A stretch of 57,563 nt of DNA, from NCBI GenBank assembly GCA_964545575.1, contig CAZJFL010000002.1:1-57563 (forward strand), in the 5' to 3' direction. The notes beneath the pieces were generated by a model that was not told where the DNA came from, searched no databases, and worked only from the letters and a program-made list of their open reading frames with translations. The position numbers and the translations under genes were made by a program. The stretch comes from an uncultured Planctomycetales bacterium. Its GTDB lineage: Bacteria > Omnitrophota > Gorgyraeia > Gygaellales > Profunditerraquicolaceae. The number at the start of each line of letters is the position of its first letter. Positions within the stretch are counted from its first letter, which is position 1. Below, one piece after another: positions 6,024 to 53,678 of the stretch.

Positions 6024-7175
6024 ATGGATTATTTATTGACCGATGAACAGAAGATGGTAAAAGAACTGGCGCGCAAGATCGCCGAGGAAAAAATCCGGCC
6101 GGTAGCGGCCATTTACGACCAGAGAGAAGAATACCCCTGGGAGATGATCAAAGTCATTGCCGACGCCGGGCTCTTCGGCTTATTCATACCGGAAGAATAC
6201 GGCGGAATGAGCGTAGGCGTGCTTAACCTTTGCATTGCCACCGAGGAGATGTCGCGTGCCTGCGGAGGTATCGCAGTATGCTATGCCGCTTCAGCGCTGG
6301 GGACGTTTCCGATAGTGCTTTTTGGCAGCGAAGAGCAGAAGAAAAAGTATCTTCCGGATTTAGCCAGCGGTAAAAAATTAGCTGCTTTTGCGGTTACCGA
6401 GCCGGAGGCAGGTTCTGATGCTTCGGCAATTACCACCAGCGCAAAAAAACAAGGGGATCATTACCTCTTAAACGGCCTGAAGCATTTTATCACCAACGGC
6501 GGGGAGGCCGAAATCTACGTCGTTATTGCTATGACTGATAAAACCAAGGGCGCCCGGGGCGCATCCGCTTTTATCGTCGAGAAAGGAACCCCCGGCTTTA
6601 CTTTCGGCAAGAAAGAGGATAAATTAGGGATACGTGCTTCTTCTACCCGTGAGCTTATCTTTACCGATTGTAAAGTTTCCAAAGAGAACCTATTGGTCAG
6701 AGAAGGCATGGGTTTTATCATAACTATGAAGGCCTTTGATATGTCGCGGCCGGGAGTAGCTGCCCAGGCATTGGGGATCGCTCAGGGGGCATTGGAGTTA
6801 GCGGTAAAATATGCTAAAGAAAGGCGCCAGTTCGGTAAATCTATCTCCGCTTTTCAGGGGATTCAGTGGATGATCGCGGATATGGCGACCCAAGTAGAGG
6901 CTGCGCGGGCTTTAGTATATGCCGCGGCAAGAATGGTAGATGCCGGGATTAAAGAAATAGGCAAAGAATCGGCGATGGCTAAGATGTACGCTTCGGATGT
7001 GGCGATGAAAGTTGCAATCGATGCGCTGCAGATATTCGGCGGATACGGCTATATGCGCGATTACCCGATAGAAAAATACGTGCGCGACGCTAAGATCACC
7101 CAGATTTACGAAGGCACGAATCAGATCCAGCGTAATATCATTGCGCTAGAAATAATCAAGGAATTGGCAAAATAG
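6024..7175 (+). CDS. acyl-CoA dehydrogenase (butyryl-CoA dehydrogenase-like)
   Basis: 383 aa with AFAVTEPEAGSDA, a C-terminal YEGTNQIQR catalytic region, and etfBA immediately downstream. Confidence 0.93.
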   Translation: MDYLLTDEQKMVKELARKIAEEKIRPVAAIYDQREEYPWEMIKVIADAGLFGLFIPEEYGGMSVGVLNLCIATEEMSRACGGIAVCYAASALGTFPIVLFGSEEQKKKYLPDLASGKKLAAFAVTEPEAGSDASAITTSAKKQGDHYLLNGLKHFITNGGEAEIYVVIAMTDKTKGARGASAFIVEKGTPGFTFGKKEDKLGIRASSTRELIFTDCKVSKENLLVREGMGFIITMKAFDMSRPGVAAQALGIAQGALELAVKYAKERRQFGKSISAFQGIQWMIADMATQVEAARALVYAAARMVDAGIKEIGKESAMAKMYASDVAMKVAIDALQIFGGYGYMRDYPIEKYVRDAKITQIYEGTNQIQRNIIALEIIKELAK

Positions 7176-7232
7176 TGTCAAAGTGTCAAAGTATCAGGTG
7201 TCATGACACTTTGACACCTGACACTTTGATAC
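7175..7232. repeat. hairpin built from tandem 8-nt units (GTGTCAAA / GTATCAGG)
   Basis: 7175-7188 is the perfect reverse complement of 7204-7217 (14 bp). A second register pairs 7183-7203 with 7212-7232. The element fills the acd-etfB spacer. Confidence 0.8.
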
Positions 7233-34467: not shown

Positions 34468-34558
34468 GGTGTCAAAATGTCAAGGTGTCAGAGTGTTAGA
34501 GTAAACCTGATACCATGACACCCTGATACCATGACACTTTGATACACGCTCTGATACG
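34468..34558. repeat. hairpin-type element built from GTGTCA/GTATCA-type 7-9-nt units
   Basis: Left arm is GGTGTCAAAATGTCAAGGTGTCAGAGTGTTAGAGT. Right arm is CTGATACCATGACACC repeated, followed by TTGATAC. Same unit vocabulary as 7175-7232. Confidence 0.7.
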
Positions 34559-37082: not shown

Positions 37083-38635
37083 TACCTAAAAACCTGGGGG
37101 AACTCTTAAACTTAAGCGCTCGGCGCTACCCGAAACGAGTAGCCATTGTCTTTGGCCAGAAAAAGATAAGCTACAAAACTTTAAATGACTCAACCGATCA
37201 TCTTGCTGCCGGGCTGATCCACCTAGGCATTAAAAAGCAGGATAAAGTAGCGATATTCCTGGATAACTGCCCGGAGTTTATGATCAGCTATTTTTCTATT
37301 CTTAAGGCCGGGGCAGTAGTAGTGCCGGTTAATTATATGCTCAAGATAGAGGAGGCCAGGTTTATCCTGCAGGATAGTTCGGCAAAGTGCCTGATCACTT
37401 CCCGCGCTTATCTGGATATGGCAGAGGAATTAAGGCTCAGGATAGATAGTTTAAAAGATATTGTGACCACTACCAAGACCAAAAGCAATGTTTTAGATTT
37501 CCACGCTCTAAGGAGAGATCCCCGCGGCGCGCTGGATAAAGTGTCTCCTGACCCCGGTGACCTGGCAGTGGTTTTATATACCTCCGGGACAACCGGGTTT
37601 CCTAAAGGAGCGATGCTGTCGCACTACAACCTTATCTCCAACGCCCTGGATTCGGTCGGCGCGATAAAGGCTGATTACAAAGACAGCTTTATCTGTATCT
37701 TGCCGTTATTCCATTCCTTTGCCGCTACCGTCTGTATGAACATGCCGCTGGCAGCGGGGGCAAAAATAGTGGTGATGAAATCCGTCCGGCCCTTTAAACG
37801 CGTCATCCGCGCCATCAGGAAAAACAGGGTGAGTGTTTTTGTGGCAGTGCCTTCGATTTATAATATACTCAAAAACATGAAATTGCCCAAACTGTTTAAC
37901 AGCATGCTGATTAAATTGTTTAATCCGGTAAAAATATGTATTTCAGGAGCAGCGGCTTTGCCGGTGGAGACCTTCCGCGGCTTTGAAAAAAAGTTCCGCA
38001 TCCCGTTGCTGGAGGGTTATGGTTTGACCGAGGCATCTCCGGTAGTCACCCTCAATCCCTTAAGAGGCCCCAGAAGAGCCGGTTCCATCGGAGTAGGCCT
38101 ATCCGGCAATATCGCATTAAAGATTATTGATGGGAAAGGCAATGCCCTCGCCTCCGGCCAAATCGGAGAACTTCTGGTTAAGGGCCCCAACGTGATGCAG
38201 GGCTATTATAAGCAGGAGGAGGCCTCAAGAGAAGCCTTAAGAGATAGCTGGCTTTATACCGGAGATATGGCTAAGTGTGACGCCGCAGGTTACTTTTATA
38301 TTGTGGGCAGGAAAAAAGAAATGATTAATGTCCGGGGTTTGAATGTTTACCCCAGAGAGATAGAGGAGGTACTTTACCAGAATCCCAAAGTCAAAGAAGC
38401 CGCGGTAATCGGCATAGCGGATACCCATAAAGGAGAGGTGCCCAAGGGGTTTGTGGTTTTAAAGGAAAACGAATCCGCCGTGGAACATGAGATTATCCAG
38501 TACTTAAGGGACAAGTTAGCCGCCTATAAGATACCCAAGTATATTGAGTTTCGCGCCAGCCTCCCTAAGAATACCACAGGCAAGGTCCTGAAGCGCCTGC
38601 TCCAAGAGGAAGAAGTTAAAAAATATAAAGCATGA
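37079..38635 (+). CDS. long-chain acyl-CoA synthetase (AMP-forming)
   Basis: YTSGTTGFPKGA (AMP-binding motif), GYGLTE, YTGD, and a C-terminal GKVLKR. Confidence 0.92.
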   Translation: MIPKNLGELLNLSARRYPKRVAIVFGQKKISYKTLNDSTDHLAAGLIHLGIKKQDKVAIFLDNCPEFMISYFSILKAGAVVVPVNYMLKIEEARFILQDSSAKCLITSRAYLDMAEELRLRIDSLKDIVTTTKTKSNVLDFHALRRDPRGALDKVSPDPGDLAVVLYTSGTTGFPKGAMLSHYNLISNALDSVGAIKADYKDSFICILPLFHSFAATVCMNMPLAAGAKIVVMKSVRPFKRVIRAIRKNRVSVFVAVPSIYNILKNMKLPKLFNSMLIKLFNPVKICISGAAALPVETFRGFEKKFRIPLLEGYGLTEASPVVTLNPLRGPRRAGSIGVGLSGNIALKIIDGKGNALASGQIGELLVKGPNVMQGYYKQEEASREALRDSWLYTGDMAKCDAAGYFYIVGRKKEMINVRGLNVYPREIEEVLYQNPKVKEAAVIGIADTHKGEVPKGFVVLKENESAVEHEIIQYLRDKLAAYKIPKYIEFRASLPKNTTGKVLKRLLQEEEVKKYKA

Positions 38636-39375
38636 AAATAAAAGCAAAAATGGTTTTTATTTTATTACCGGCTCTTTTTGTGGCGGCTTTAGCCCTGGCA
38701 GCCCAAAATATGGGGGGGCTTCAAGTAGGGCGGCTTTACCCTGAACGCGCCGGAGAGGAGATAACCTATGAGGTCAAACTCGGCAATCTCTGGGTGGGTG
38801 AGGCCAGGTTTAAGTATAAGGGAAGAGTAGACTCTAACGGCAGGGCACTTAACCTACTGGTTTTTGAAACCCGGGTGATCAACTTTGCGGATACCGAGAA
38901 TATCTACAGCGATCCTGGAAACTTTCTTCCGGTCAGGATTGAGCGGGAGGTTATCACCTTATTTAAAAGGGAATATATTAGTGAAAATTATGACCAGAAA
39001 AACCACCGGGTTACAATCACCAAAAATAACGGTAAGGCCACCACTGAACAGCGGGTGATTAGCAGCAACGACGTAATCCATAATGCCATTTTGTTTCCTT
39101 ATGCCGTACGCGACCTGCCGGATTTGGTGGTCGGATGCGAATTCAGGGTAAACCTGCCTAAACGCACCCTGCGGGTAAAGCTGGTTTCCATAGAGAACTT
39201 AAAGCTTGGGAATAAGGTTTTTCAGGCCTTCCGCTTTGAAAGCACCCCTAAACAGATAGCAGTCTGGATCAGCACTGACGCGCTCAGAATTCCCCTGAAA
39301 ATAGAAGGGGCAGGGGTATTCGGTTATACCCTGATTCTTAAGAGTTATCGCGGCCAGCCAATCCGATCCCTCTAA
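38632..39375 (+). CDS. secreted DUF3108-like protein
   Basis: Signal peptide (ALALAAQN) and a beta-rich body resembling DUF3108. Confidence 0.65.
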   Translation: MKIKAKMVFILLPALFVAALALAAQNMGGLQVGRLYPERAGEEITYEVKLGNLWVGEARFKYKGRVDSNGRALNLLVFETRVINFADTENIYSDPGNFLPVRIEREVITLFKREYISENYDQKNHRVTITKNNGKATTEQRVISSNDVIHNAILFPYAVRDLPDLVVGCEFRVNLPKRTLRVKLVSIENLKLGNKVFQAFRFESTPKQIAVWISTDALRIPLKIEGAGVFGYTLILKSYRGQPIRSL

Positions 39376-39430
39376 TTTTCCTGTCAGAGAAGATCCTGTT
39401 TTGCCTCTAAATGTCAGGCTTAAAAAAAAT

Positions 39431-39446
39431 AAGTAAGAAGAAGTAA
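39431..39446 (-). repeat. two 10-bp-phased TTACTT motifs (reverse orientation)
   Basis: AAGTAA at 39431 and 39441 on the + strand. Confidence 0.5.
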
Positions 39447-39596
39447 ATCGAAATCGGCTTATCCACAGGGAAATACCATTTTGCTGTAATTCCTTATATA
39501 CAAAGGAGTTATAGCAATTTATTTCCTTTGCTCAAGTTAACATAAGATATCTTATAGGCACAAGTGCGACATACCGAAGATAAATAAAAATCCTGT

Positions 39597-39803
39597 TTAT
39601 AAAGCAGTTTTTGGCTCGTTTTCTTTTAAATACCTGCTAATTTGGGCTAATTCTTCTTTGCTTGGCTTGGCCTTTTCTTTAATCCACCTTTGTATTGTCC
39701 GGGGGCTAACCCCTAGATATTTCGCAAGATCCTTGGTTTCATAGCTGTCGGAATAAAAATGAAACTCATGCAATTTATACCACTCTTGTAGTTCTTTATC
39801 CAT
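39597..39803 (-). CDS. small helix-turn-helix protein
   Basis: DLAKYLGVSPRTIQRWIKE HTH signature. Confidence 0.6.
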   Translation of the reverse strand: MDKELQEWYKLHEFHFYSDSYETKDLAKYLGVSPRTIQRWIKEKAKPSKEELAQISRYLKENEPKTAL

Positions 39804-39813
39804 TCCTCGCTCC

Positions 39814-40638
39814 TCATGCCGAACCAGCTAAAAACCGCTCATATTTACGCTCTAAAAACAGCCTATTTTGGGCATTTTTATATAGAATATTGAATAATTT
39901 AACGCTATCTTTGTGGTCATATATAAACATATAGCTCCATCCGTTCTTCGTCTTTTGAATATATATGGTCCTTTTAGGCATACCTAATGACTCAAGGCTC
40001 TGCTGTAATCCTATAATAAAATCTTTAGAACTACTGACAAATTTTGACCTTAAGGGGAATTTTGGCCGGCGTTTATCAAAAAAAACGCTCCCATCTCCGT
40101 CAAAAACGCCTCTTATAAAATCCGCTAGATAAGCTTCCGGAACGTTGGGAAATTGAACTATCAGGCTTTTCTTGGGCACAACGCATAATTTCTTTAGATC
40201 CTTAACTATTTTTTCTCTAGAAAAGTGGTAACAATAGAGTCTTTTTTGATGCCTAGATGGAGTTATTTTATGTGCCGAACCCATAACTTTTTTAACTTTT
40301 TCAAGTAACTCTTTGTCATTCATACTAAGAGAAACGGTTCCTGCCCCTGAAATACAGCCATCTGTAATGATTAGGCCTAATACATATGCCATTTCTGGCG
40401 ACCAATCGCTAAAGAAATTCTCGTTTATATCAAAGAATTGCTGCGTTAATTTGCCCTGTTTTTGGGCCTCAATTCGAGCCTCTGATTTAGAGCGCTGGGC
40501 TATGCCGAATTTCTTAAGTTTTTTATAAACCGCTATGCGAGAAACCTTGTATAATCTGGCTATATCTTCTAAAGACTTCTTCTTATTTATATAAAGATCG
40601 GTTAAATTTTCTTTATTTAAATCGTTTAATTTAGCCAT
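39814..40638 (-). CDS. free-standing HTH + double-motif LAGLIDADG endonuclease-like protein
   Basis: N-terminal HTH (LEDIARLYKVSRIAVYKKL). Two LAGLIDADG motifs (AYVLGLIITDGCI and LADFIRGVFDGDGSV). Confidence 0.85.
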   Translation of the reverse strand: MAKLNDLNKENLTDLYINKKKSLEDIARLYKVSRIAVYKKLKKFGIAQRSKSEARIEAQKQGKLTQQFFDINENFFSDWSPEMAYVLGLIITDGCISGAGTVSLSMNDKELLEKVKKVMGSAHKITPSRHQKRLYCYHFSREKIVKDLKKLCVVPKKSLIVQFPNVPEAYLADFIRGVFDGDGSVFFDKRRPKFPLRSKFVSSSKDFIIGLQQSLESLGMPKRTIYIQKTKNGWSYMFIYDHKDSVKLFNILYKNAQNRLFLERKYERFLAGSA

Positions 40639-40956
40639 CTATAGTGTCTTTCTCAAGAGGATAATCTTGTAGCTACCTCCCTGTATTTTGATAATCTTCC
40701 CGTTGACCAGGGCGTCAGCCACTGTCTGGCGCGCTCTTTTGAGGATCCGGTTTAGGGTCGGTTGCGAGATATGCATTGACTTTGCCGTTTCTTTTTGGCT
40801 TAAGCCGGTGAAATCGGCGAGCCTAATCGCCTCAAACTCCTCCATCTTCAGCTCTACCTGATCCGGCCTGCCAGGCCTGCCCCGGGGGCTAAATTGGCTA
40901 ATCCGGGGGTCCAGGCGCACAATCCGGTATTTTTTAGGTCTGCCTCTAGGCTGCAT
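40639..40956 (-). CDS. DUF134 (UPF0251) DNA-binding protein
   Basis: RGRPKK...F.PRG...V.L..EE.EA.RL.D (LKMEEFEAIRLADFTGLSQKE) plus a sigma-70 region-4-like HTH. Its stop abuts the LAGLIDADG start. Confidence 0.85.
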   Translation of the reverse strand: MQPRGRPKKYRIVRLDPRISQFSPRGRPGRPDQVELKMEEFEAIRLADFTGLSQKETAKSMHISQPTLNRILKRARQTVADALVNGKIIKIQGGSYKIILLRKTL

Positions 40957-40957
40957 T

Positions 40958-40977
40958 TTACTTAAACTTACTTACTT
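40958..40977 (+). repeat. phased TTACTT motifs directly upstream of the DUF134 start
   Basis: TTACTT at 40958 and 40968 (10-nt phase), plus 40972. Confidence 0.5.
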
Positions 40978-41063
40978 TTTCCGCCACAATGCTTGGCGGA
41001 TGCGCCAATATTTGTGGCGCAAACCCCCTATTTATTATGAATAATTATCCATAAATAGCCAAT

Positions 41064-43961: not shown

Positions 43962-45512
43962 TTAACTTAATGGCTTGTTGAGGTATTCAGGGATATCTTT
44001 GCCAAGCAGCGTATAAAAATTAGTCAAGTGCATCCTGAAGAGCCGGTCAAAGCTGCCGTCAGGATCTTCTCCTGCCCACCAGAACCAATCGCTTCCCTCC
44101 AGTATATACATTTGTTTATAGGCTAGTTCAGTGTTCAGTGTTCGGTGTTCAGTGCTTGCCAACTCTTTCCGGGCCAGCGCCAGCCACTCCCAGGCTTTAA
44201 CTTTTTTTGGGCTACCTATCCATTTGCTGAAATTGCCGTATATCCAGGAGCCTGCGCTCAAGCGCTTAATTTCATTTCTGGGGGGGTGAGTTTTTAGGTA
44301 TTCGCTTACGGTGGAAGTTTCAAGGAATGGGCTTTCCGACAATTTCCGGTAAAGCAGCTCCAGGAAGTCATGGCCGTCGCGGGGGTAATATTCCCAGGCA
44401 TTTTCTCCGTCCATGGCCACCGTAACCAGTATATCTTTATCCACAAAAGTATCGGCAATGATTTTTAAGTGCCCTAAGAAATCCGCTACCGCATCCGCGG
44501 CAGTAAGCCGGTGATAGACGAAGCCGATTAGATCAGAGAGGTTCCTGTCCCTAAAGACGATATTTAAGTTGCCCTCTTCTCTTTTTAAGAGGTGGGGTTG
44601 GTAAATTAGCGAAGCCTCCCTCCTCTTCTTTTTAAGCGACTTAAATAATATTGCCTCGTCCGCAACTATCCAGTTTATGCCGGCATTGATGATAAAAGGC
44701 AAGATGTGCTCGGATACGGATTCTTCCGAAGGCCACATCCCGCCGGGGGCTCTAGCGAAGAGGGATTTATGCAGCTCTACGGCTAAGGTTATCTGCTCCT
44801 TAGCATCTTGGGGATAGGCAAACTCTATCTTAGGCAGGATCGTTTTGGGGTTAGCTTCTTTGGCAATTTTGGTGCTGTAAAGCAGGGGCAATATCGGGTG
44901 GTAAAAAGGAGTGGTGGTAATTTCGATCTGGCCGCGTTCTTGGATTTTGCGATAAGCAGGTATGATTTCTTTTAAAGTCCCTAGCTGGATATCTAAAACC
45001 GAAAGCTTCTCCTCTTCGCTAAAAAATCTCCCTTTCTCAACTAATCTTTTTAATTCCGGGATGCGCTCTCTTAAGTCCGGGTCAAACCAGGCCAGGTTAA
45101 ACCAGGCCACCAGGTCCAGATAATCCTGGGTATTAAACTCCTTCGCGTTCCCTTTTTTAAAATATAACTCATAATAACGGGGGAAGAGCGAGATTACGGT
45201 CTCGGTGTTAATGCTGAAGAAGTTTTGCAGGATAAAGTTTTTATCCGCGCCGGTCAGTTCCCGGGCCGGTTTACGGGAAAGCTCAAGGTAACTATCTTTT
45301 ACCCGGCCGCCGCAATAATCCTCTATTTGTTCTAGCATAGATGGCACAAGGTTAAAGGTTTGCCTTATGGCGGGGTAATTCTCTAGGATCTCTACCATAT
45401 CCAGGTAATCTTTAATCCCGTGCAGGCGCACCCAGGGCGTATCCACCTCCTGGTTCAGGAGATTTTTGTAATAAGGCTGGTGCATGTGGTAGATGAAGGC
45501 TAGATATAGCAT
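43962..45512 (-). CDS. glycoside hydrolase family 57 (alpha-glucan-active enzyme)
   Basis: N-terminal YHMHQPYY and WVRLHGIKDY, a central GH57 catalytic region, and C-terminal EGSDWFWW. Confidence 0.9.
   Translation of the reverse strand: MLYLAFIYHMHQPYYKNLLNQEVDTPWVRLHGIKDYLDMVEILENYPAIRQTFNLVPSMLEQIEDYCGGRVKDSYLELSRKPARELTGADKNFILQNFFSINTETVISLFPRYYELYFKKGNAKEFNTQDYLDLVAWFNLAWFDPDLRERIPELKRLVEKGRFFSEEEKLSVLDIQLGTLKEIIPAYRKIQERGQIEITTTPFYHPILPLLYSTKIAKEANPKTILPKIEFAYPQDAKEQITLAVELHKSLFARAPGGMWPSEESVSEHILPFIINAGINWIVADEAILFKSLKKKRREASLIYQPHLLKREEGNLNIVFRDRNLSDLIGFVYHRLTAADAVADFLGHLKIIADTFVDKDILVTVAMDGENAWEYYPRDGHDFLELLYRKLSESPFLETSTVSEYLKTHPPRNEIKRLSAGSWIYGNFSKWIGSPKKVKAWEWLALARKELASTEHRTLNTELAYKQMYILEGSDWFWWAGEDPDGSFDRLFRMHLTNFYTLLGKDIPEYLNKPLS
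44126..44154. repeat. four tandem GTTCAGT/GTTCGGT heptamers inside the GH57 CDS
   Basis: The + strand reads GTTCAGTGTTCAGTGTTCGGTGTTCAGTG. On the coding strand it is translated in frame as TEHRTLNTEL. Confidence 0.8.
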
Positions 45513-45531
45513 AAATTAGCTTTGGGTTGAT

Positions 45532-45562
45532 GGTCTATAGTCTATGGTCTATAGTCGATAGT
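45532..45562. repeat. left 31-bp inverted-repeat arm (GGTCTAT/AGTCTAT heptamers) flanking the four-helix-bundle gene
   Basis: GGTCTATAGTCTATGGTCTATAGTCGATAGT matches the reverse complement of 45930-45960 at 27 of 31 positions (hand alignment). It abuts the stop codon. Confidence 0.85.
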
Positions 45563-45919
45563 TTATTTTTTCAAATAATTTTTAAAAGCGTGCAGCATTT
45601 TTGAAATTTGTTCACATTGGCCATAAAAAGAAGAAAATTCAGTTTGGCTCATATACTTTTGTTCTAAGCTTATATATAGAATAGTAACCACCTCATTTAG
45701 GGATCCTATAGCTATTTGGATAAAGCGGCGTAAATCCGCGTCAGAACCCCTGCCTTCTCCCTCTGCTATGTTTAAACTGATAGATACTGCGGCCCTGTTT
45801 AACTGTGCAGTTATCCCGAATTGCTCTTCTTTTGGAAATTTTTTCGTTAAGGTATAAATTTCGCTGGCGAATTTAACCGATTCTTTCCAAATTTTTAGCT
45901 CTTCAAATTTAAACGCCAT
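45563..45919 (-). CDS. four-helix-bundle protein (23S rRNA intervening-sequence protein / Avd-like family)
   Basis: ELKIWKESVKFASEIY...QLNRAAVSISLNIAEG...FIQIAIGSLNE pattern of the S23p/IVS family. Confidence 0.9.
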   Translation of the reverse strand: MAFKFEELKIWKESVKFASEIYTLTKKFPKEEQFGITAQLNRAAVSISLNIAEGEGRGSDADLRRFIQIAIGSLNEVVTILYISLEQKYMSQTEFSSFYGQCEQISKMLHAFKNYLKK

Positions 45920-45929
45920 ATTTGCCTTT

Positions 45930-45960
45930 ACTATAGACTATTGACTATCGACTATAGACC
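45930..45960. repeat. right 31-bp inverted-repeat arm
   Basis: ACTATAGACTATTGACTATCGACTATAGACC, located 10 nt upstream of the gene's ATG. Confidence 0.85.
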
Positions 45961-45979
45961 CAGCGCTATTAGCTGTCAA
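45951..45979 (-). promoter_or_regulatory. sigma70-like promoter whose -10 lies inside the repeat arm
   Basis: Minus strand: TTGACA, 17-nt spacer, TATAGT. Confidence 0.5.
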
Positions 45980-45983
45980 TAAT

Positions 45984-46016
45984 AAAAAACCCCCGGGGGA
46001 TTGCTCCCCCGAGGGT
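45984..46016 (-). terminator. rho-independent terminator of the porin gene
   Basis: Minus strand: GGGGGA-GCAA-TCCCCC stem-loop (with flanking G/C) followed by TTTTTT. Confidence 0.65.
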
Positions 46017-46038
46017 CTTGTTTATTACATTAGCTGTT

Positions 46039-47487
46039 TTAGAAAGTAACCTTCATCGAACCAATCATCTGGACAGCGTTTTCGTCGAATCTCCATATAC
46101 CATTTGCTGTTTTATCAAACGCGGTTCCCGGGTTGAAATATCCGAAAGTCAGGCCGAACTGCACATCTTCGGTGTAGTCGTAAGTAGTGGTAATATCAAG
46201 TGCCTGGCCGAGATATTTGTCATTATTGTCTGATAAGGAGTATACTCCTCCCAATCCGACTGGACCATAGGTTGATGGCACCCATCCAAAAGTGGGCTTT
46301 ACCCAGAGTAGGTAATAACCCCAGACACCGGATACGGTAACATCCTCCATCGGTTTAAAACTACCCTTAAGCGCAACGTATTGAGTGTTGGTATGGGGTA
46401 GAATAGCATTAGTGATGCTATTAATGGTCTGGTCTTCAAACATCGGGTCCCACATAGTGTATTTTTTATTGTCTTTCTTGTCTCCGCTCAGGATGCCGTA
46501 AATAACCCCGACTTGAGGGGAGTATTTGCTAATACGCGCAACATCCTTTAAGTCGTAGTTAGCAGTAAGCTGCAGCGCCCATGCCCTGCGTTTAGCATCA
46601 ACACTAGCAGTGAAGCCTTTCATATCGCCAACTAAGGGATTAGCAGCGTTTCCAAACTGAAAAGCGCCTTCTAAGCTGGCAGTAAGGTTATTGACGATTT
46701 GACCACGGGTCAAGAAACCAATGGTATGGACGGAATCTTTCTTTTGACCAAGGACGTAAGCTGGAGCTCTGTTCATTTTGCTAAACCAGTATATGTCAGT
46801 CGCTCCTTTAAACCCTAAGGCAGTCATGTCATAGCTGGCATTCATGCCATAGAGATCAACATCGTTTTTCTCGGGGGTACCTACACCTGGCCCCATCTGC
46901 ATCCACCAAATATCATTTTCCTGGATTTTGGAATAAATGACATCTACCACCAGAGGCTCGTAGTTTAAGGTTGCCCTCACAGCATCAAAGGATTTCCTTA
47001 AACTTAAGTCCCAGGGTATCTGCCATTCATTGGCTTCCGGAACACCATCTACGCGCGGCGAGTTGGTATCCACATCACCGATGATTAAAGCATTACCGAA
47101 CCTTAATTCCTGACGGCCTACGGTAAGGCTCAGCGGTGAATAAAGGAACTCTTTTAAGGTAACATATGCTAAATCAATACCTACGCCATCATCTCTTTCG
47201 TTAACTGCCAATGCTCCGTACCAATCGTTTCCCCATGTCCTTTCATTAATTAACCTGATGCATGCGGAAACATTATCGGTTAAGTCGGCATCAATTCTTA
47301 CGCGCACCTGCGAAATGAACCCTGAATCATGATATTTATAATCTTCGCTGAGGCTGAAGTTCTGCCTGTCAATTGCGCGCATAAGGATATCGCCGCTTAC
47401 CTTTATATTCTGGACCGCTGCGAATGCGCTGCTCAGTGAGCAGACCACAAACGCTATGGCCAGAACTAAAATTAAGCGTTTACCCAT
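46039..47487 (-). CDS. outer-membrane beta-barrel porin-like protein
   Basis: Signal peptide ending SSAFA, alternating beta-strand pattern, aromatic C-terminus (KVTF). Confidence 0.75.
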   Translation of the reverse strand: MGKRLILVLAIAFVVCSLSSAFAAVQNIKVSGDILMRAIDRQNFSLSEDYKYHDSGFISQVRVRIDADLTDNVSACIRLINERTWGNDWYGALAVNERDDGVGIDLAYVTLKEFLYSPLSLTVGRQELRFGNALIIGDVDTNSPRVDGVPEANEWQIPWDLSLRKSFDAVRATLNYEPLVVDVIYSKIQENDIWWMQMGPGVGTPEKNDVDLYGMNASYDMTALGFKGATDIYWFSKMNRAPAYVLGQKKDSVHTIGFLTRGQIVNNLTASLEGAFQFGNAANPLVGDMKGFTASVDAKRRAWALQLTANYDLKDVARISKYSPQVGVIYGILSGDKKDNKKYTMWDPMFEDQTINSITNAILPHTNTQYVALKGSFKPMEDVTVSGVWGYYLLWVKPTFGWVPSTYGPVGLGGVYSLSDNNDKYLGQALDITTTYDYTEDVQFGLTFGYFNPGTAFDKTANGIWRFDENAVQMIGSMKVTF

Positions 47488-48384: not shown

Positions 48385-48418
48385 ATAAAATTTGTACCCT
48401 TATAAATGAGGGATAGAT

Positions 48419-48488
48419 TTTGCGGGTGGCACGGGGATGCTTCGCAGCGCATCTAGCGCAAGAAGCGCCCCGTGACAGGACCCGCAAA
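48419..48488. other. long GC-rich imperfect hairpin (about 25 bp paired)
   Basis: TTTGCGGGT pairs with ACCCGCAAA, CACGGGG with CCCCGTG, GCTTC with GAAGC, and GCGC with GCGC. Located between tRNA-Arg and the PHP gene. Confidence 0.4.
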
Positions 48489-48505
48489 CTTTATCCGAAT
48501 GTAAG

Positions 48506-48579
48506 CGCCCCTGGCAGGAATCGAACCTGCCACCCACAGTTTAGGAAACTGCTGCTCTATCCTTATGAGCTACAGGGGC
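48506..48579 (-). tRNA. tRNA-Arg (anticodon CCT)
   Basis: Hand fold: acceptor GCCCCTG/CAGGGGC, D arm GCTC-ATAAGGATA-GAGC, anticodon arm GCAGT-TTCCTAA-ACTGT, T arm GCAGG-TTCGATT-CCTGC, discriminator G. 74 nt. Confidence 0.9.
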
Positions 48580-48703
48580 GTTAATCTTTTTATATCCTGT
48601 AGTGAATCCGCCAACGCTTTGTGGCGGAGAGCTACAGGGGCGTTAATCTTTTTATATCCTGTAGTGAATCCGCCAACGCTTTGTGGCGGAGAGCTACAGG
48701 GGC
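48567..48703. repeat. 62-bp tandem repeat (two perfect copies plus a 13-nt partial) starting inside the tRNA-Arg 5' end
   Basis: 48567-48628 is identical to 48629-48690. 48691-48703 repeats the first 13 nt. Each unit contains tRNA positions 1-13 and a TCCGCCA/TGGCGGA hairpin. Confidence 0.9.
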
Positions 48704-49956: not shown

Positions 49957-50772
49957 CTAAAGCTCCTGCCTCTGAAACTCTATAAAGTCTCTTAGCTTCT
50001 GTAACGCCTGCTCTTCGATCTGGCGCACCCTTTCCCGGGAGAGCGAAAACTTTTTTGCCACTTCCGCCAGCGTATGCGGTTTGCCGTCTGCTAAGCCAAA
50101 GCGCATATCCAGAATCTCTCTCTCCCTCCTAGTCATTACCTCTAATAGGTTAGACACTCTTTCTTTGTCTAAGAGGCGTTCTATCCCGGCATCCGGAGAG
50201 GCGATATTCTGGTCTTCCACCAGATCAATGACCTGCCCCTCCCCTTCTTCCCCTACCGGCGCATCCAGGGAGGAGGTGCTGGTAGAGAGCCAGAAATTTA
50301 TCTGGGAGCTTTTTTCTTTATCGAGTTTCATAGCTTTGCTGAGCTCCGCATCGCTAGGCTGGCGTTTTAATTTTTGCGAGAGGCGTTCCTTGGTCTTTTT
50401 CCATTTAGTGATCAATTCGTTCATGTAAACCGGCACGCGGATAGTCTTACCGTGCTCGGAAATAAAACGGGTGACCCCCTGTTTTATCCACCAGGCAGCA
50501 TAGGTGGAAAAACGGTAGCCTTTTTTGTGGTCGAACTTATCCACCGCCTTCATCAACCCGAGGTTCCCTTCTTCGATTAAATCCAGAAGCGGAACACCCA
50601 AATACATATAGCGCTTGGCAATATTGATCACCAGGCGCAGGTTTGAGCGGATCATCTCCTTGCGCGCCTGTTCGTCCCCTCTCTTGATGCGTTTGTTTAA
50701 GGTTATTTCCTGCTCTGCAGTCAAAAGCGGTATATCGCGGATTTCTTTAAGGTAAGTTTTGAGGGCTTCCAT
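49957..50772 (-). CDS. sigma-70 family RNA polymerase sigma factor (short RpoD/RpoS-like)
   Basis: Regions 1.2 to 4 are present: YLKEIRDIPLLTAEQE, DLIEEGNLGLMKAVDKFD, FSTYAAWWI, TLAEVAKKFSLSRERVRQIE. Confidence 0.9.
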   Translation of the reverse strand: MEALKTYLKEIRDIPLLTAEQEITLNKRIKRGDEQARKEMIRSNLRLVINIAKRYMYLGVPLLDLIEEGNLGLMKAVDKFDHKKGYRFSTYAAWWIKQGVTRFISEHGKTIRVPVYMNELITKWKKTKERLSQKLKRQPSDAELSKAMKLDKEKSSQINFWLSTSTSSLDAPVGEEGEGQVIDLVEDQNIASPDAGIERLLDKERVSNLLEVMTRREREILDMRFGLADGKPHTLAEVAKKFSLSRERVRQIEEQALQKLRDFIEFQRQEL

Positions 50773-50856
50773 GGTTTAGTTCAGGGTTCAGGGTTCAGAG
50801 TTCAGAGTTCATAATCAAGTCGACTATGGACAAAGAACACTGAACTATGAACTAAC
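50773..50856. repeat. GTTCAGN-heptamer hairpin element filling the ppdK-sigma spacer
   Basis: Left arm is GTTCAGG x2, GTTCAGA x2, then GTTCAT. A 22-nt spacer follows. Right arm is GAACACTGAACTATGAACTAAC. Confidence 0.8.
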
Positions 50857-53595
50857 TCATTTTTTTCTTTCGCGAAGGACTGCCTGGGCTGCCGCCAATT
50901 TTGCAATCGGTACCCGAAAAGGCGAGCAGCTGACGTAATCCATGCCTACGCGGTGGCAGAATTCTACCGAGCGCGGCTCTCCGCCGTGCTCGCCGCAGAT
51001 ACCCACTTCTAAATCTTTACGCGTTTTTCTACCGCGCTCAATGCCGATTTTAATTAATTCGCCGATGCCTGTCTGGTCAATGCTCTGGAAGGGGTCTTCG
51101 GGGAGTATTCCTTTTTTAATATACTCAGGCAAAAATCCGCCGATATCATCGCGTGAAAAGCCAAAGCCCATCTGGGTCAGGTCATTGGTGCCGTAGGAGA
51201 AAAATTGCGCCACCGTCGCCAGCTGGCCTGCGACTAATGCCGCGCGCGGGATCTCTATCATCGTGCCGAACATATGCTTGATTGTTTTTAAGCCGTATTT
51301 CTCTAGTACCTCTGCGTAGACTTTTTTAGCAATTGCCAGCTGGTCTTGCAGTTCCTTGACATCCGAGACTACCGGGATCATGATTTCCGGATAAGGTTTT
51401 TTACCCTCCTCTAGTAGTTCCGCAGCCGCTTCCATCACCGCGCGGATCTGCATGGTGCTCACTTCCGGATAAGTAACCCCCAGGCGTACGCCGCGGTGGC
51501 CCATCATCGGGTTTGACTCATGCAGGCCTTCGGCTCTCTTGGCCAGTTCTTCCATGCTGATATTTAAATCCCGGGCGAGCTGCTCCAATTTTTCCTTTTC
51601 GCGAGGGACGAATTCATGTAAGGGCGGGTCAAGCAGGCGGATGACTACTGGCAGGCCGTCCATGGCTGCCAGCGTATCTTTGATATCTTTTTTCACAAAA
51701 GGAAAAAGTTCATCCAGCGCTTTCTTTCTCTCCTCTTCGGTTTTAGAAATAATCATCTTGCGCAGGAGAAATAAAGGCTCATCCGAGCCTTTACCGTAGA
51801 ACATATGTTCTGTCCGGAATAAACCGATGCCTTCTGCCCCGAACTGGCGCGCTTTAAGTGCATCTTCCGGAGTATCGGCGTTGGTGCGGATACCCAGCCG
51901 CTTAATCTGTCCGCAGATTTTCAGGAAATTATCCAAGAGTGTATTTTCTTCGGTAGCATCCATCGTCGGCAACTGGCCCTTGTAAACATTGCCCTTGGTG
52001 CCGTTTAAAGTAATCCAGTCCCCTTCTTTTAAGACTTCTGCCTCAATTCGCAGTTCTTTTTCTTCGTAAGCCACATGCAAGGCGTTGCATCCGACGATAC
52101 AGCATTTTCCCCAGCCGCGGGCGACTAATGCCGCATGACTAGTCATGCCTCCCCTGGCAGTGAGAATTGCCTGGGCTGCGCGCATCCCCTCTACGTCTTC
52201 CGGATTGGTCTCCTCGCGCACCAGGATTACTTTTTTACCCTGTTTTGCCCAAGCCACGGCATCGTTAGCTGAGAAAACAATCTGTCCGCTTGCGCCGCCC
52301 GGCCCGGCAGGCAGGCCTTTTGCCAAAGGCTTATGCGTCAGTTCTATTTTAGGGTTAATGATCGGATGCAGTAATTCATCCAGCTGCGCCGGAGTTACGC
52401 GCATGACTGTGTCTTCTTTTTTGATTAATTTTTCCTTGAGCATATCCATGGCCATGCGTACTGCTGCTGGGCCGTTACGTTTGCCGATGCGGCACTGCAG
52501 CATGAAGAGCCTGTCCTTCTCGATAGTGAACTCGATATCCTGCATATCGTGATAATGCTTTTCCAGGCGGTTCTGGATATCGAAAAGCTCTTTATAGATT
52601 TTCGGCATCGCTTTTTCCAGGGTGAGCAATTCTTTATTCTGGCTGGATTTGGAATATTCGTTGATCGGCGCAGGCGTCCTGATGCCGGCGACTACGTCTT
52701 CACCCTGGGCATTAATGAGGTATTCGCCGTAAAAATTATTTTCTCCGTTGCCGGGATTACGCGTAAAAGCCACGCCGGTGGCGGAATCATCCCCCATGTT
52801 TCCGAAGACCATGGTCTGCACGGTTACCGCCGTCCCCCATTCATCCGGGATCCCCTCTATCCTTCGGTAGCTGACTGCGCGCTTGCCGTTCCAGGAGGCA
52901 AATACCGCGCCGATGCCGCCCCATAGCTGCTGCTCTGGTTCGTCGGGAAATTCCTTTCCCAGCACTTCTTTTATTTTTACCTTAAAGGCGGCGCAAAGAA
53001 TTTTGAGGTCTTCTGAGTTTAGGTCAGTATCGCTCTTGTAGCCTTTATCCTTTTTTATCTGCGACATGATTTTTTCCAGCTGCTTACGGATGCCCTGCTC
53101 GTCTTTAGGTTCTATGCCGGCTGCCTTTTCCATGACTACGTCAGAATACATCATCAGCAGCCGCCGATAGGCATCATAAACAAAACGGGCATTGCCGCCG
53201 CTTTTGTTGATTAATCCGGGGATAGTTTTTTCGGTTAAGCCCACGTTTAAGACGGTCTCCATCATCCCGGGCATGGATTTCCTCGCGCCGGAGCGAACAG
53301 AGACTAAAAGCGGGTCATGCGGATCCCCGAATTTTTTAGCCATCAGTTTTTCTATTTTTTCCATGGCCTTTTCTGTCGCTTCTTTTAAACCCTTAGGATA
53401 AGTGCGTTTGTTTTTATAATAATGGATACAGACTTCGGTGGTGATCGTAAATCCCGGCGGAACCGGAAGGCGCAGATTCTTGTGCCCGGCCATCTCGGCA
53501 AGGTTTGCGCCTTTTCCGCCGAGTAAATTTTTCATGCTTTCGTTTCCGTCTGCCTTACCCCCGCCAAAGCTGTAAACGTATTTTTTAGTTGCCAT
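50857..53595 (-). CDS. ppdK: pyruvate, phosphate dikinase
   Basis: 912 aa. GGKGANLAEM, GGMTSHAALVARG (phosphohistidine), a C-terminal PEP-utilising TIM barrel, and GICGEHGG. Confidence 0.97.
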   Translation of the reverse strand: MATKKYVYSFGGGKADGNESMKNLLGGKGANLAEMAGHKNLRLPVPPGFTITTEVCIHYYKNKRTYPKGLKEATEKAMEKIEKLMAKKFGDPHDPLLVSVRSGARKSMPGMMETVLNVGLTEKTIPGLINKSGGNARFVYDAYRRLLMMYSDVVMEKAAGIEPKDEQGIRKQLEKIMSQIKKDKGYKSDTDLNSEDLKILCAAFKVKIKEVLGKEFPDEPEQQLWGGIGAVFASWNGKRAVSYRRIEGIPDEWGTAVTVQTMVFGNMGDDSATGVAFTRNPGNGENNFYGEYLINAQGEDVVAGIRTPAPINEYSKSSQNKELLTLEKAMPKIYKELFDIQNRLEKHYHDMQDIEFTIEKDRLFMLQCRIGKRNGPAAVRMAMDMLKEKLIKKEDTVMRVTPAQLDELLHPIINPKIELTHKPLAKGLPAGPGGASGQIVFSANDAVAWAKQGKKVILVREETNPEDVEGMRAAQAILTARGGMTSHAALVARGWGKCCIVGCNALHVAYEEKELRIEAEVLKEGDWITLNGTKGNVYKGQLPTMDATEENTLLDNFLKICGQIKRLGIRTNADTPEDALKARQFGAEGIGLFRTEHMFYGKGSDEPLFLLRKMIISKTEEERKKALDELFPFVKKDIKDTLAAMDGLPVVIRLLDPPLHEFVPREKEKLEQLARDLNISMEELAKRAEGLHESNPMMGHRGVRLGVTYPEVSTMQIRAVMEAAAELLEEGKKPYPEIMIPVVSDVKELQDQLAIAKKVYAEVLEKYGLKTIKHMFGTMIEIPRAALVAGQLATVAQFFSYGTNDLTQMGFGFSRDDIGGFLPEYIKKGILPEDPFQSIDQTGIGELIKIGIERGRKTRKDLEVGICGEHGGEPRSVEFCHRVGMDYVSCSPFRVPIAKLAAAQAVLRERKK

Positions 53596-53617
53596 GTGTT
53601 TAAAAACCTCCTTTATT

Positions 53618-53678
53618 GTTCAGTGTTCAGGGTTCAGTGTATATAGACGATGAACTCTGAACCATGAACTATGAACAC
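53618..53678. repeat. GTTCAGN-heptamer hairpin element upstream of ppdK, overlapping the glyQS stop
   Basis: Left arm is GTTCAGTGTTCAGGGTTCAGTGT, spacer is ATATAGACGA, right arm is TGAACTCTGAACCATGAACTATGAACAC. Confidence 0.8.

Follow-up and report, generated by a model that had tools for sequence, protein, structure and literature searches.

A PF05635 gene and its heptamer arms as a candidate mobile gene-plus-repeat cassette in an Omnitrophota order without detectable RNase III

A small four-helix-bundle gene and the short repeats that enclose it appear to have moved through an order of Omnitrophota as one piece. The gene, a member of PF05635, is bracketed by 31-nt inverted arms built of RGTCDAT heptamers (45532-45562 and 45930-45960) in the window, the whole stretch of 57,563 nucleotides that we analyzed. 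The best explanation overall is a mobile gene-plus-cognate-repeat cassette whose protein reads its own repeats, and we give this complete account an even chance. Its components stand at different levels. Comparison with relatives makes it very probable that the cassette moves as a unit and that its arms are constrained in sequence; that the encoded protein is what reads the word is plausible, at just short of even. The locus is laid out as follows.

46039-47487, minus strand: porin gene, Alginate_exp-type, upstream of the cassette
45986-46019, minus strand: intrinsic terminator of the porin gene, kept in 24 relatives; upstream edge of the occupied junction
45951-45979, minus strand: sigma-70-type promoter, TTGACA (45979-45974), 17-nt spacer, TATAGT (45956-45951)
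45930-45960, minus strand: upstream arm, GGTCTAT AGTCGAT AGTCAAT AGTCTAT AGT in gene orientation, 4.4 units of RGTCDAT
45920-45929, minus strand: spacer from arm to ATG, AAAGGCAAAT, containing a purine-rich ribosome-binding stretch; similar spacers in orthologues
45563-45919, minus strand: four-helix-bundle protein gene, 118 aa, PF05635/TIGR02436
45532-45562, minus strand: downstream arm, ACTATCG ACTATAG ACCATAG ACTATAG ACC, 19 nt short of the GH57 ATG (45512)
45517-45531, no strand: weak outer inverted-repeat extension, TAGCTTTGGGTTGAT, which pairs with 45961-45968
43962-45512, minus strand: GH57 gene, directly downstream of the cassette

Positions 45532-45979 make up a compact, self-contained cassette of promoter, arm, ribosome-binding spacer, PF05635 gene, and second arm, and GH57 is probably co-transcribed with it. 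The original prediction had placed a gene with heptamer-built arms between a porin and a GH57 gene, with a -10 box inside one arm, and all of these elements were recovered. The arms are complementary at 27 of 31 positions (87%) in full register, and the TTGACA-17-TATAGT promoter, which is also kept in orthologue L141, scores 11/12 for sigma-70. The downstream arm abuts the stop codon, and the upstream arm ends 10 nt before the ATG. A two-unit register shift yields 17/17 pairing; in register, the four mismatches all fall at variable positions, with no co-variation between the arms. Including the outer extension, the inverted repeat spans 39 nt at 79% complementarity. RNA fold prediction bore out the proposed stem, as the arms form the outer stem of the minimum-free-energy structure (z -3.1). 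With up to one mismatch allowed, RGTCNATRGTCNAT has eight matches in the window, all within the two arms, against 0.42 expected from shuffles, and the arms are the sole RGTCDAT arrays in the window. Unit number varies, with 3.4 units in L141 against 4.4 in this genome (G000). The sequence AGCTAAT, found 7 and 10 nt outside the G000 arms, overlaps the weak outer inverted repeat; it is kept at 6/7 positions in L141 and is absent from L143 and L155. As it neither abuts the arms nor is general among orthologues, it is at most a possible target-site duplication. No transposase or nuclease was found in or beside the cassettes.

The predicted identity of the gene, a four-helix-bundle protein of the type encoded in 23S rRNA intervening sequences (IVSs), held up well. 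The protein matches PF05635 at E 4.2e-39 (133.5 bits, cut-off 33.8), with residues 6-110 covering profile positions 1-105 of 106, and TIGR02436 at E 5.4e-37 (126.3 bits, cut-off 24). It is homologous to the pentameric XCC0516 (Protein Data Bank 2gsc; E 4.9e-20, residues 6-117) and to 2rld (E 6.3e-07). These profile and structure matches assign it to the PF05635/TIGR02436 four-helix-bundle family and make it a homologue of solved homopentameric structures. The suggested homology to the Avd proteins of diversity-generating retroelements (DGRs) stood in part: bAvd (PF22296), the only other Pfam match, is hit at 26.6 bits, below its cut-off of 40. The two families are distant homologues with the same pentameric four-helix-bundle fold class; unlike a DGR, the cassette has no template/variable repeat pair, and reverse transcriptase (PF00078) has no match anywhere in the genome. 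A DGR reading was rejected on these grounds. The 118-aa protein is near neutral in charge and contains no known DNA- or RNA-binding motif, and its gene is under purifying selection, with dN/dS at or below 0.19 where measurable.

The tie between gene and arms extends to other copies of the family. An inverted-repeat flank score of at least 14 is reached by 8 of 1174 ORFs in the genome, including both PF05635 genes, and arrays that have an inverted partner at a distance of 150-600 nt are limited to the two cassettes plus one marginal GTTCAGN array at the threshold score. PF05635 is the sole cargo seen inside such hairpins in this genome. Among 30 PF05635 loci in 40 relatives, 13 score at least 14 and at least 24 are visibly armed, as expected had the arms been a conserved part of the element. 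Further PF05635 copies are armed too, the layout being common to most of about 80 further loci, and in most cassettes the arms abut the start and stop codons. Homologues 74-88% identical with RGTCDAT arms occupy six or more unrelated gene junctions, and the close relatives of the cassette are placed as follows.

P0002, P0005, and P0022: porin-GH57 junction; RGTCDAT arms
P0009: beside IS3/HepT genes; RGTCDAT arms
P0025: toxin-antitoxin island; downstream arrays only, upstream arm missing
P0028: EpsI-Bac_transf junction; RGTCDAT arms
P0064: after an AMP-binding gene; word drifted
P0069: Pribosyltran-tRNA junction; RGTCDAT arms

Sister proteins have a common word despite unrelated flanking genes. 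As judged from these sequences, the 118-aa protein and the RGTCDAT word are shown to be inherited and relocated together as one lineage. Comparison of orthologous spacers, which the original prediction proposed, found that 22 of the 24 related genomes compared lack a PF05635 gene at the porin-GH57 junction; G006 has a broken cassette copy there and G017 a solo arm. Empty hairpins of the same word also lie beside the loaded cassette in L158. Together with the six or more junctions, the L158 empties and the G017 solo arm bear out the prediction of an element family that has both loaded and empty members and moves over evolutionary time. Within the family, the GH57 tree has a star-like shape; for a count of gains and losses at this junction, its only clear point is the sister pairing of G006 (filled, broken copy) with G005 (empty) at 99% support. 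The pgk-tpiA spacer contains two unrelated cassettes, and some cassettes lie within mobile-element-rich islands. Neighbors are co-oriented with the cassette in 56 of 57 cases upstream and 52 of 54 downstream; we do not take this as a sign of an orientation-specific mechanism, since the genome background is already 92.3% co-oriented.

Conservation of the word provides the main argument that it is read. Across 62 units from eight cassettes, RGTCDAT positions 2, 3, 4, 6, and 7 are 90-100% fixed, while synonymous sites are saturated (pS 0.68-0.91). G000 and L143 have upstream arms that agree at 30 of 31 positions at pS 0.89, and four other sister pairs keep the word at pS 0.69-0.86. Distances between proteins and between words are correlated (Mantel r 0.40, p 0.0002). 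These comparisons show that selection beyond base pairing alone maintains the word, and that it diverges in step with the protein. Sequence-specific reading of the word is argued for solely by its conservation past synonymous saturation, which does not by itself specify the reader, and shared words in sister cassettes would also be expected from co-inheritance alone.

An unlikely alternative places the function in RNA without RNase III, with the arms clamping the 5' and 3' ends of the mRNA for exonuclease protection or for translation gating of the four-helix-bundle gene and GH57, and the word conserved for reasons besides protein recognition. The long-range stem does form the outer helix of the predicted fold, with 10 nt between its base and one start codon and 19 nt on the side of the other; most cassettes have arms that abut the start and stop codons, and cassettes sit between co-oriented genes. 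Lack of RNase III does not go with poorer arm complementarity: a score of at least 14 is reached by 10 of 12 in genomes without the enzyme and by 5 of 17 in genomes with it. However, pairing alone predicts compensatory drift after synonymous saturation, and the word is unchanged; the arms do not co-vary in register, their four mismatches being confined to variable positions; and a clamp leaves the pile-up of free same-word arrays in cassette-holding genomes unexplained.

That pile-up was seen with four words, whose free arrays are concentrated where the corresponding cassette is present; orphan arrays are the exceptions. For RGTCDATx3 matches, cassette-bearing genomes rank 1, 2, and 4 of 41 (G030 with 74, G006 with 31, and G000 with 10). 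G035 ranks first for TAGCGNN (110 matches) and G000 for GCGATNN (58 matches), and for GTAGRTN the genomes with the corresponding cassette, G012 and G010, are in ranks 1 and 3. The exceptions come from assemblies that are 64-86% complete, namely G021 (12 RGTCDAT matches) and G007 (14 GTAGRTN matches), neither of which has a PF05635 gene, and G039, G013, and G009, which have many TAGCGNN matches and no matching cassette. A strict period-7 scan of about 1.4 Mb from 24 relatives found 5 arrays in the 679 kb from genomes that lack the gene and 9 in the 740 kb from those that have it. We discarded the conclusion that arrays and gene are uncoupled, as the strict scan misses degenerate arrays; G030 has 0 strict arrays and 74 RGTCDAT matches.

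Arrays that persist without any PF05635 gene, as in G018 and G021, would suit a non-autonomous element whose arms are recognized by an unlinked enzyme, such as a Y1/HUH transposase of the RAYT/IS200 type, with the four-helix-bundle gene as cargo, for example Avd-like or defense-related. Gene-less hairpins far outnumber loaded ones in this genome, the cassettes found in mobile-element-rich islands would fit as well, and the genome has two RAYT-like genes (C13:5580-6063 and C8:47115-47637), each between hairpins of its own. Those hairpins, however, are of a different sequence, GGGACA. The cassettes of one genome also differ in word, with two words in G000 and seven among the eight copies of G030 (one copy lacking a clear array), which argues against a shared host factor; a single trans-acting enzyme is not expected to read all seven. 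Since the word also tracks the phylogeny of the four-helix-bundle protein, and no cargo but PF05635 has been seen in hairpins of this kind here, we regard this explanation as doubtful.

Four further hairpins and an array within GH57 had been predicted to belong to the same family as this cassette. The corresponding features are listed below.

7175-7232, no strand: gene-less hairpin, word GTGTCAAR (TGTCAAR family)
34469-34542, no strand: gene-less hairpin, word family TGTCAAR/TGTCAGA
44125-44154, no strand: solo GTTCAGN array within a hypervariable loop of GH57, read in frame
50771-50860, no strand: gene-less hairpin, GTTCAGN; occupies the spacer after the pyruvate phosphate dikinase gene
53612-53678, no strand: gene-less hairpin, GTTCAGN; upstream of the pyruvate phosphate dikinase gene

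The four hairpins are real and made of tandem 7-8-nt units. By their words (TGTCAAR and GTTCAGN), they and the GH57 array are best classed as other repeats and not as empty copies of the RGTCDAT cassette, so the claim that an arm of the same units lies at 44126 fails. Nor is the GH57 array an in-frame insertion, as it replaces part of the hypervariable loop with no gain in length over homologues. GTTCAGN is one of the two commonest words in the genome and has no cassette in the assembly. Both the pyruvate phosphate dikinase and ThrRS genes lie between hairpins of one word.

Genome-wide, the strict scan returned 87 raw period-7 runs (73 after merging), against at most 12 for every other period from 4 to 15. 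Arrays contain 3-5 units, with a mode of 4, and the genome's arrays qualify as heptanucleotide tandem repeats of the STRR type. Besides this cassette, the genome has a second one, with a paralogous gene at C1:123340-123654 and GCGATAW arrays, and only two free arrays of the RGTCDAT word. The abundance of arrays, and the two other genes bracketed by same-word hairpins, could suggest that the PF05635 gene merely happens to sit between two generic heptamer arrays. The controls refute this reading, and we consider it highly improbable: single-hairpin loops enclose both PF05635 genes and hardly any other gene, the layout recurs in most of the roughly 80 further loci, and the window's only RGTCDAT arrays are these two arms.

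The original prediction noted the resemblance to ORF-bearing 23S rRNA IVSs, and the comparison is close. In Coxiella burnetii, the IVS has a 28-bp stem that RNase III cleaves internally, tandem heptamers precede the S23p start codon, and strains differ in the number of heptamer units (Warrier et al. 2016, PMC4990558). The cassette and the IVSs of Coxiella and Leptospira have in common the PF05635 family, an ORF in the loop of an approximately 28-31-bp terminal-inverted-repeat stem, tandem heptamers in the arm that immediately precedes the start codon, and variable unit number. In contrast, the cassette lies between protein-coding genes and not in rRNA helix 25 or 45 (the 23S rRNA gene is not present in the assembly), has its own promoter, and carries a gene under purifying selection, whereas the Coxiella IVS ORF is decaying. 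The shared architecture would fit a processing module in which RNase III cuts the stem, frees the four-helix-bundle mRNA, and separates the flanking messages. No RNase III gene was found in this genome with three models (5.5% of the genome is unassembled) or in any of the 41 genomes of the order, comprising this one and 40 relatives, whereas the same search was positive for the enzyme in 86 of the 151 genomes examined across the phylum. With two Omnitrophota RNase III proteins as queries, tblastn against this genome reached E 0.74 at best. With no RNase III detectable, the excision proposed for this stem is unavailable in this clade, and we consider such a module improbable here.

Returning to a cassette whose protein reads its own repeats, the nearest parallel is the REP/REPIN-RAYT system. 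Both have a single-copy gene flanked by an inverted short repeat, gene-less copies dispersed in the same genome, and a repeat sequence that co-varies with the gene lineage, here with orphan arrays as exceptions. RAYT, however, is a Y1 HUH transposase, whereas the cassette protein is a 118-aa four-helix bundle with no HUH/Y1 motifs, and the REP/REPIN repeat is a single palindrome in place of a tandem array of a 7-nt word. By analogy, the gene with its arms would be the master copy of the repeat family, and gene-less hairpins and solo arrays its derivatives. The arms would serve as putative arrays of recognition sites, either in DNA or in the RNA stem, to which the four-helix-bundle oligomer of the same cassette would bind. 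If it binds at the upstream arm, the -10 box would be covered, which would gate transcription of both the cassette and the GH57 glycogen operon behind it.

Heptanucleotide repeats are known from other bacteria, including GGGNATC of Xanthomonas and Nostoc (Rehm et al. 2015, PMC4692102) and the H4 elements of Geobacter metallireducens (PMC2700814). Like these repeats and the cyanobacterial STRRs, the arrays described here have about four 7-nt units, lie mostly between co-oriented ORFs and sometimes inside genes, and use genome-specific words. No associated gene is reported in PMC4692102 or PMC2700814, whereas the present arrays bracket a specific gene family and follow its phylogeny. A tentative generalization, less probable than the reading of this cassette, is that PF05635 proteins are putative sequence-specific readers of 7-nt words, and that gene plus arrays act as autonomous master copies with no known transposase or nuclease fold. 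Such copies would seed gene-less hairpins and solo arrays and could explain the bacterial heptanucleotide excess, with ORF-bearing rRNA IVSs as one special landing site.

PF05635 genes with heptamer arms outside rRNA are not described in the non-subscription literature that we searched. The new elements here are a protein and word that appear to move as one unit, selection on the word, the coupling of free arrays to cassettes, and the order-wide absence of detectable RNase III. Two paralogues with two different words coexist in one genome. An order that keeps its hairpins without RNase III separates the biology of the element from rRNA processing. The function of the "23S rRNA IVS protein" and the excess of 7-base tandem repeats in bacteria may be two halves of one system. 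If the protein reads its own word, the cassette would be a minimal mobile or self-propagating element of a new kind and would offer programmable binders of 7-nt words; otherwise, it would still be a well-defined insulator or regulator module before a glycogen operon.

The cassette between the porin and GH57 genes conformed in every detail to the original observation of a 23S-IVS-type four-helix-bundle gene held within heptamer-built inverted arms, one of which contains a −10 box. In profile searches, its product matched PF05635 (23S rRNA intervening-sequence protein; E 4.2e-39) and TIGR02436 (four helix bundle protein; E 5.4e-37), while the match to the bAvd profile fell below the cut-off. The protein is also homologous to pentameric XCC0516 (PDB 2gsc; E 4.9e-20). 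In gene orientation, the features are as follows.

Features of the cassette and its junction
46019-45986, minus strand: porin terminator, the first feature
45930-45960: upstream arm, 31 nt
Between the upstream arm and the ATG: spacer AAAGGCAAAT
45563-45919, minus strand: four-helix-bundle ORF, 118 aa, ending in TAA
45532-45562: downstream arm, 31 nt, followed by 19 nt and the GH57 ATG

The promoter (−35 TTGACA, 17-nt spacer, −10 TATAGT) matches consensus at 11 of 12 positions; its −10 box sits within the upstream arm, the remainder of which then follows. Both arms are tandem RGTCNAT heptamers, complementary at 27 of 31 positions and at 17 of 17 when the register is shifted by two units. When the mRNA strand was folded, as had been proposed, the arms paired as the outer helix of the minimum-free-energy structure (z −3.1). 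If chance were the explanation, 0.42 matches to RGTCNAT would be expected in the window; there are eight, all within the cassette arms.

The association of gene and arms is not peculiar to this site. A flank inverted-repeat score of at least 14 was reached by 8 of the 1174 ORFs in the source genome (G000), including both of its PF05635 genes. The others were a LAGLIDADG gene between tRNA genes, three housekeeping genes, each between two complete hairpins, and two RAYT/IS200-like (Y1 transposase-like) genes outside the window (contig positions C13:5580-6063 and C8:47115-47637), each flanked by its own inverted GGGACA...TGTCCC hairpins. The latter form a system of REP/REPIN type, separate from the heptamer arrays. 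Among 40 related genomes, 13 of 30 PF05635 loci scored at least 14, and inverted tandem arrays were visible by eye at no fewer than 24 of the 30; 20 further copies and a phylum-wide sample of 29 loci had the same armed appearance. Arm periods are mostly 7, sometimes 8-10, and each cassette lineage has its own repeat unit, or word. The suggested search for heptamer arms thus yielded other copies, both in relatives and as a second G000 cassette (C1:123340-123654; word GCGATAW) directly adjoined by an empty, gene-less hairpin of the same word. The downstream arm of this second cassette (GCATATC x4; C1:123251-123287) is read in frame within the signal peptide that the following gene encodes.

Four further hairpins in the window (7175, 34469, 50771 and 53612) had been assigned to the same family. 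They are real and built of tandem 7-8-nt units, but their words, TGTCAAR and GTTCAGN, differ from RGTCDAT. Likewise, the arm noted inside GH57 at 44126 does not consist of the cassette's own units:

44125-44154: GTTCAGN array inside GH57, in a hypervariable loop, with no added length compared with homologues

GTTCAGN is confined to G000 (24 matches), the assembly of which (1.48 Mb, 18 contigs, 94.5% complete) holds no GTTCAGN cassette. A strict scan of this genome, which misses degenerate arrays, returned 87 raw period-7 runs (73 merged); no other period between 4 and 15 exceeded 12. For 20 merged arrays, an inverted partner lay 150 nt away or less, and 47 were solo; partners 150-600 nt away were found for the two PF05635 cassettes and one marginal case, a GTTCAGN array (C5:9694) whose partner scores only at threshold. 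An earlier, cruder array-density test was withdrawn because the strict scan behind it misses degenerate arrays.

RNase III is a near-universal bacterial enzyme, and the arms had been proposed to form a stem that it cleaves. Three models did not find the enzyme in G000, and tblastn of two Omnitrophota RNase III proteins against this genome gave a best E of 0.74. Across the phylum, TIGR02191 detected RNase III in 86 of 151 genomes; within the order, it gave no match in any of the 41, which include 20 of high quality. As the enzyme was not found in the order, the cassettes of this clade do not work by RNase III excision. The absence looks like a lineage-wide loss in this Omnitrophota order, which might be the reason long hairpins are tolerated here inside operons and genes. 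Cassettes with arms are present whether or not a genome has RNase III. The complementarity of the arms is, if anything, higher where the enzyme is lacking, with scores of at least 14 in 10 of 12 cases versus 5 of 17 where it is present, a comparison among related genomes that carries no formal test. Reverse transcriptase was also not found in G000, ruling out that the cassette protein is an Avd of a diversity-generating retroelement.

Homologues 74-82% identical to the cassette protein were found at other junctions, and almost all retain RGTCDAT-type arms.

Relocated homologues
P0009, beside IS3 and HepT genes: arrays on both sides, inversion not clear
P0025, in a toxin-antitoxin island: upstream arm lost, downstream arrays alone kept
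Homologue between EpsI and a sugar transferase gene
P0064, after an AMP-binding enzyme gene: word drifted
Homologue at a phosphoribosyltransferase-tRNA gene junction: two genes upstream of the porin, same syntenic block

At the last site (locus L158, ~2950-3180), a loaded cassette is followed by a tRNA gene and two tandem empty RGTCDAT-like hairpins. The ~20-nt loops of these hairpins are mutually similar, suggesting copies of each other rather than independent decay products. In a tree of 28 proteins from relatives, the sister pairs L001/L008, L003/L006, L005/L007 and L019/L030 each share a word despite unrelated flanking genes. Conversely, the pgk-tpiA spacer is occupied in two families by unrelated PF05635 cassettes with different words (L005 in G035, L013 in G026); one of these cassettes has the pgk stop codon inside the initial unit of its upstream arm.

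Cassettes at L011 (G006), L194 (G030), L028, L158 and L200 lie directly between or beside tRNA genes, reminiscent of the classical setting of 23S rRNA intervening sequences (IVSs) in rRNA and tRNA operons. At 48385-48700, the window itself has a minus-strand tRNA gene preceded by a ~59-nt tandem duplication, which copies the tRNA's initial 12 nt along with the sequence upstream of it, and followed by a GC-rich hairpin. Elsewhere, at ~38000-41000, cumulative GC skew peaks and gene orientation switches from plus to minus, probably marking a replication terminus or another strand-switch point.

Comparison of orthologous spacers, also proposed earlier, revealed presence/absence among relatives, with filled, broken, solo-arm and empty states. 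Porin-GH57 synteny is kept in 24 relatives, 22 of which lack a PF05635 gene at the junction; in 13 of the 24, the spacer is 65-99 nt and consists of a conserved terminator plus a few bases ahead of the GH57 ATG. The G006 cassette has TATAGAC-type arms and its ORF is broken; G020 has an empty hairpin of a different word. G017 has a solo arm, GGTCGATAGTCAATAGTCGAT, with 0 mismatches to the word pattern and 17 nt identical to the G000 arm, ending ~20 nt before the GH57 ATG. Cassettes encoding proteins 81-88% identical to that of G000 occupy the same junction in metagenome contigs, one with an upstream arm one heptamer shorter and the promoter retained. Gains and losses are not countable because the GH57 tree is star-like, its one clear point being filled G006 as sister to empty G005 (99% support). 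In most relatives (24 spacers, L032-L058), GH57 starts only 5-30 nt past the porin's strong intrinsic terminator, too short a gap for a promoter to fit; a near-consensus one is provided by the cassette in G000 and its close orthologues. This spacer is a hot spot of other small repeats, too (G018, G020, G017).

The cassette gene has a dN/dS of 0.19 against its closest orthologue; against other lineage members, pS is 0.68-0.91 (saturated) and pN 0.10-0.16. Over 62 heptamer units from eight cassettes of the lineage, the consensus is R-G-T-C-D-A-T, with positions 2, 3, 4, 6 and 7 fixed at 90-100% and C never at position 5. G000 and L143 share 30 of 31 positions in their upstream arms at pS 0.89, and four other sister pairs keep their word at pS 0.69-0.86. 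An RNA clamp working without RNase III would draw on the pairing of the arms; a stem alone, however, would tolerate compensatory drift, yet the word is conserved, which argues that something reads the sequence. Words also diverge with the proteins: they differ by 0.75 mismatches when the protein distance is under 35%, by 1.5 when it is 35-50% and by ~3.4 when it is greater (Mantel r 0.40, p 0.0002). Were the gene a passenger inside ends read by an unlinked enzyme, the reader would lie outside the cassette. Words differ within one genome, with two in G000 and seven among eight copies in G030 (the eighth without a clear array), making a shared host factor unlikely. The cassette encodes nothing but the four-helix-bundle protein, and we infer that this protein reads the word.

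The words are genome-specific. For a word with a known cassette, the highest count falls in a genome that carries this cassette, and orphan arrays exist.

Three-unit array matches per genome, for four words searched across all 41 of the order's genomes
RGTCDAT: with matching cassette, G030 74, G006 31, G000 10 (ranks 1, 2, 4); others, G021 12; none in 31 genomes
TAGCGNN: with matching cassette, G035 110 (rank 1), G030 10, G029 8 (ranks 6, 7); others, G039 65, G013 55, G009 19, no matching cassette found in any
GCGATNN (searched as the control for TAGCGNN, with the pattern reversed): with matching cassette, G000 58 (rank 1); other, G030 24
GTAGRTN: with matching cassette, G012 20, G010 10 (ranks 1, 3); other, G007 14, cassette not found

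The exception genomes are all assemblies 64-86% complete. No PF05635 gene was found in the assemblies of G021, G018 and G024.

Together, these findings best support a self-contained cassette, a gene with cognate word arrays and here its own promoter, that relocates as a unit between gene junctions. The relocating unit would leave or seed gene-less arrays of its own word. A four-helix-bundle oligomer may read that word and, at this locus, could sit on the −10 box ahead of the GH57/ParA-CBM48 glycogen genes.

Among described objects, the ORF-bearing 23S rRNA IVS comes closest. In Coxiella, this element has a stem of 28 bp, with GACAGAT heptamers in tandem ahead of the S23p start codon, and is cut by RNase III (Warrier 2016, PMC4990558); RNase III excision defines IVS biology (PMC4990558). 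Heptamer arrays preferring four units are known and unexplained (PMC4692102, PMC2700814); our literature search found no paper on such a cassette outside rRNA. What is new here is the absence of RNase III from this order, a word conserved past synonymous saturation, the step-wise divergence of word and protein together, genome-level coupling for four words, and a filled, broken, solo-arm and empty series at one orthologous junction.
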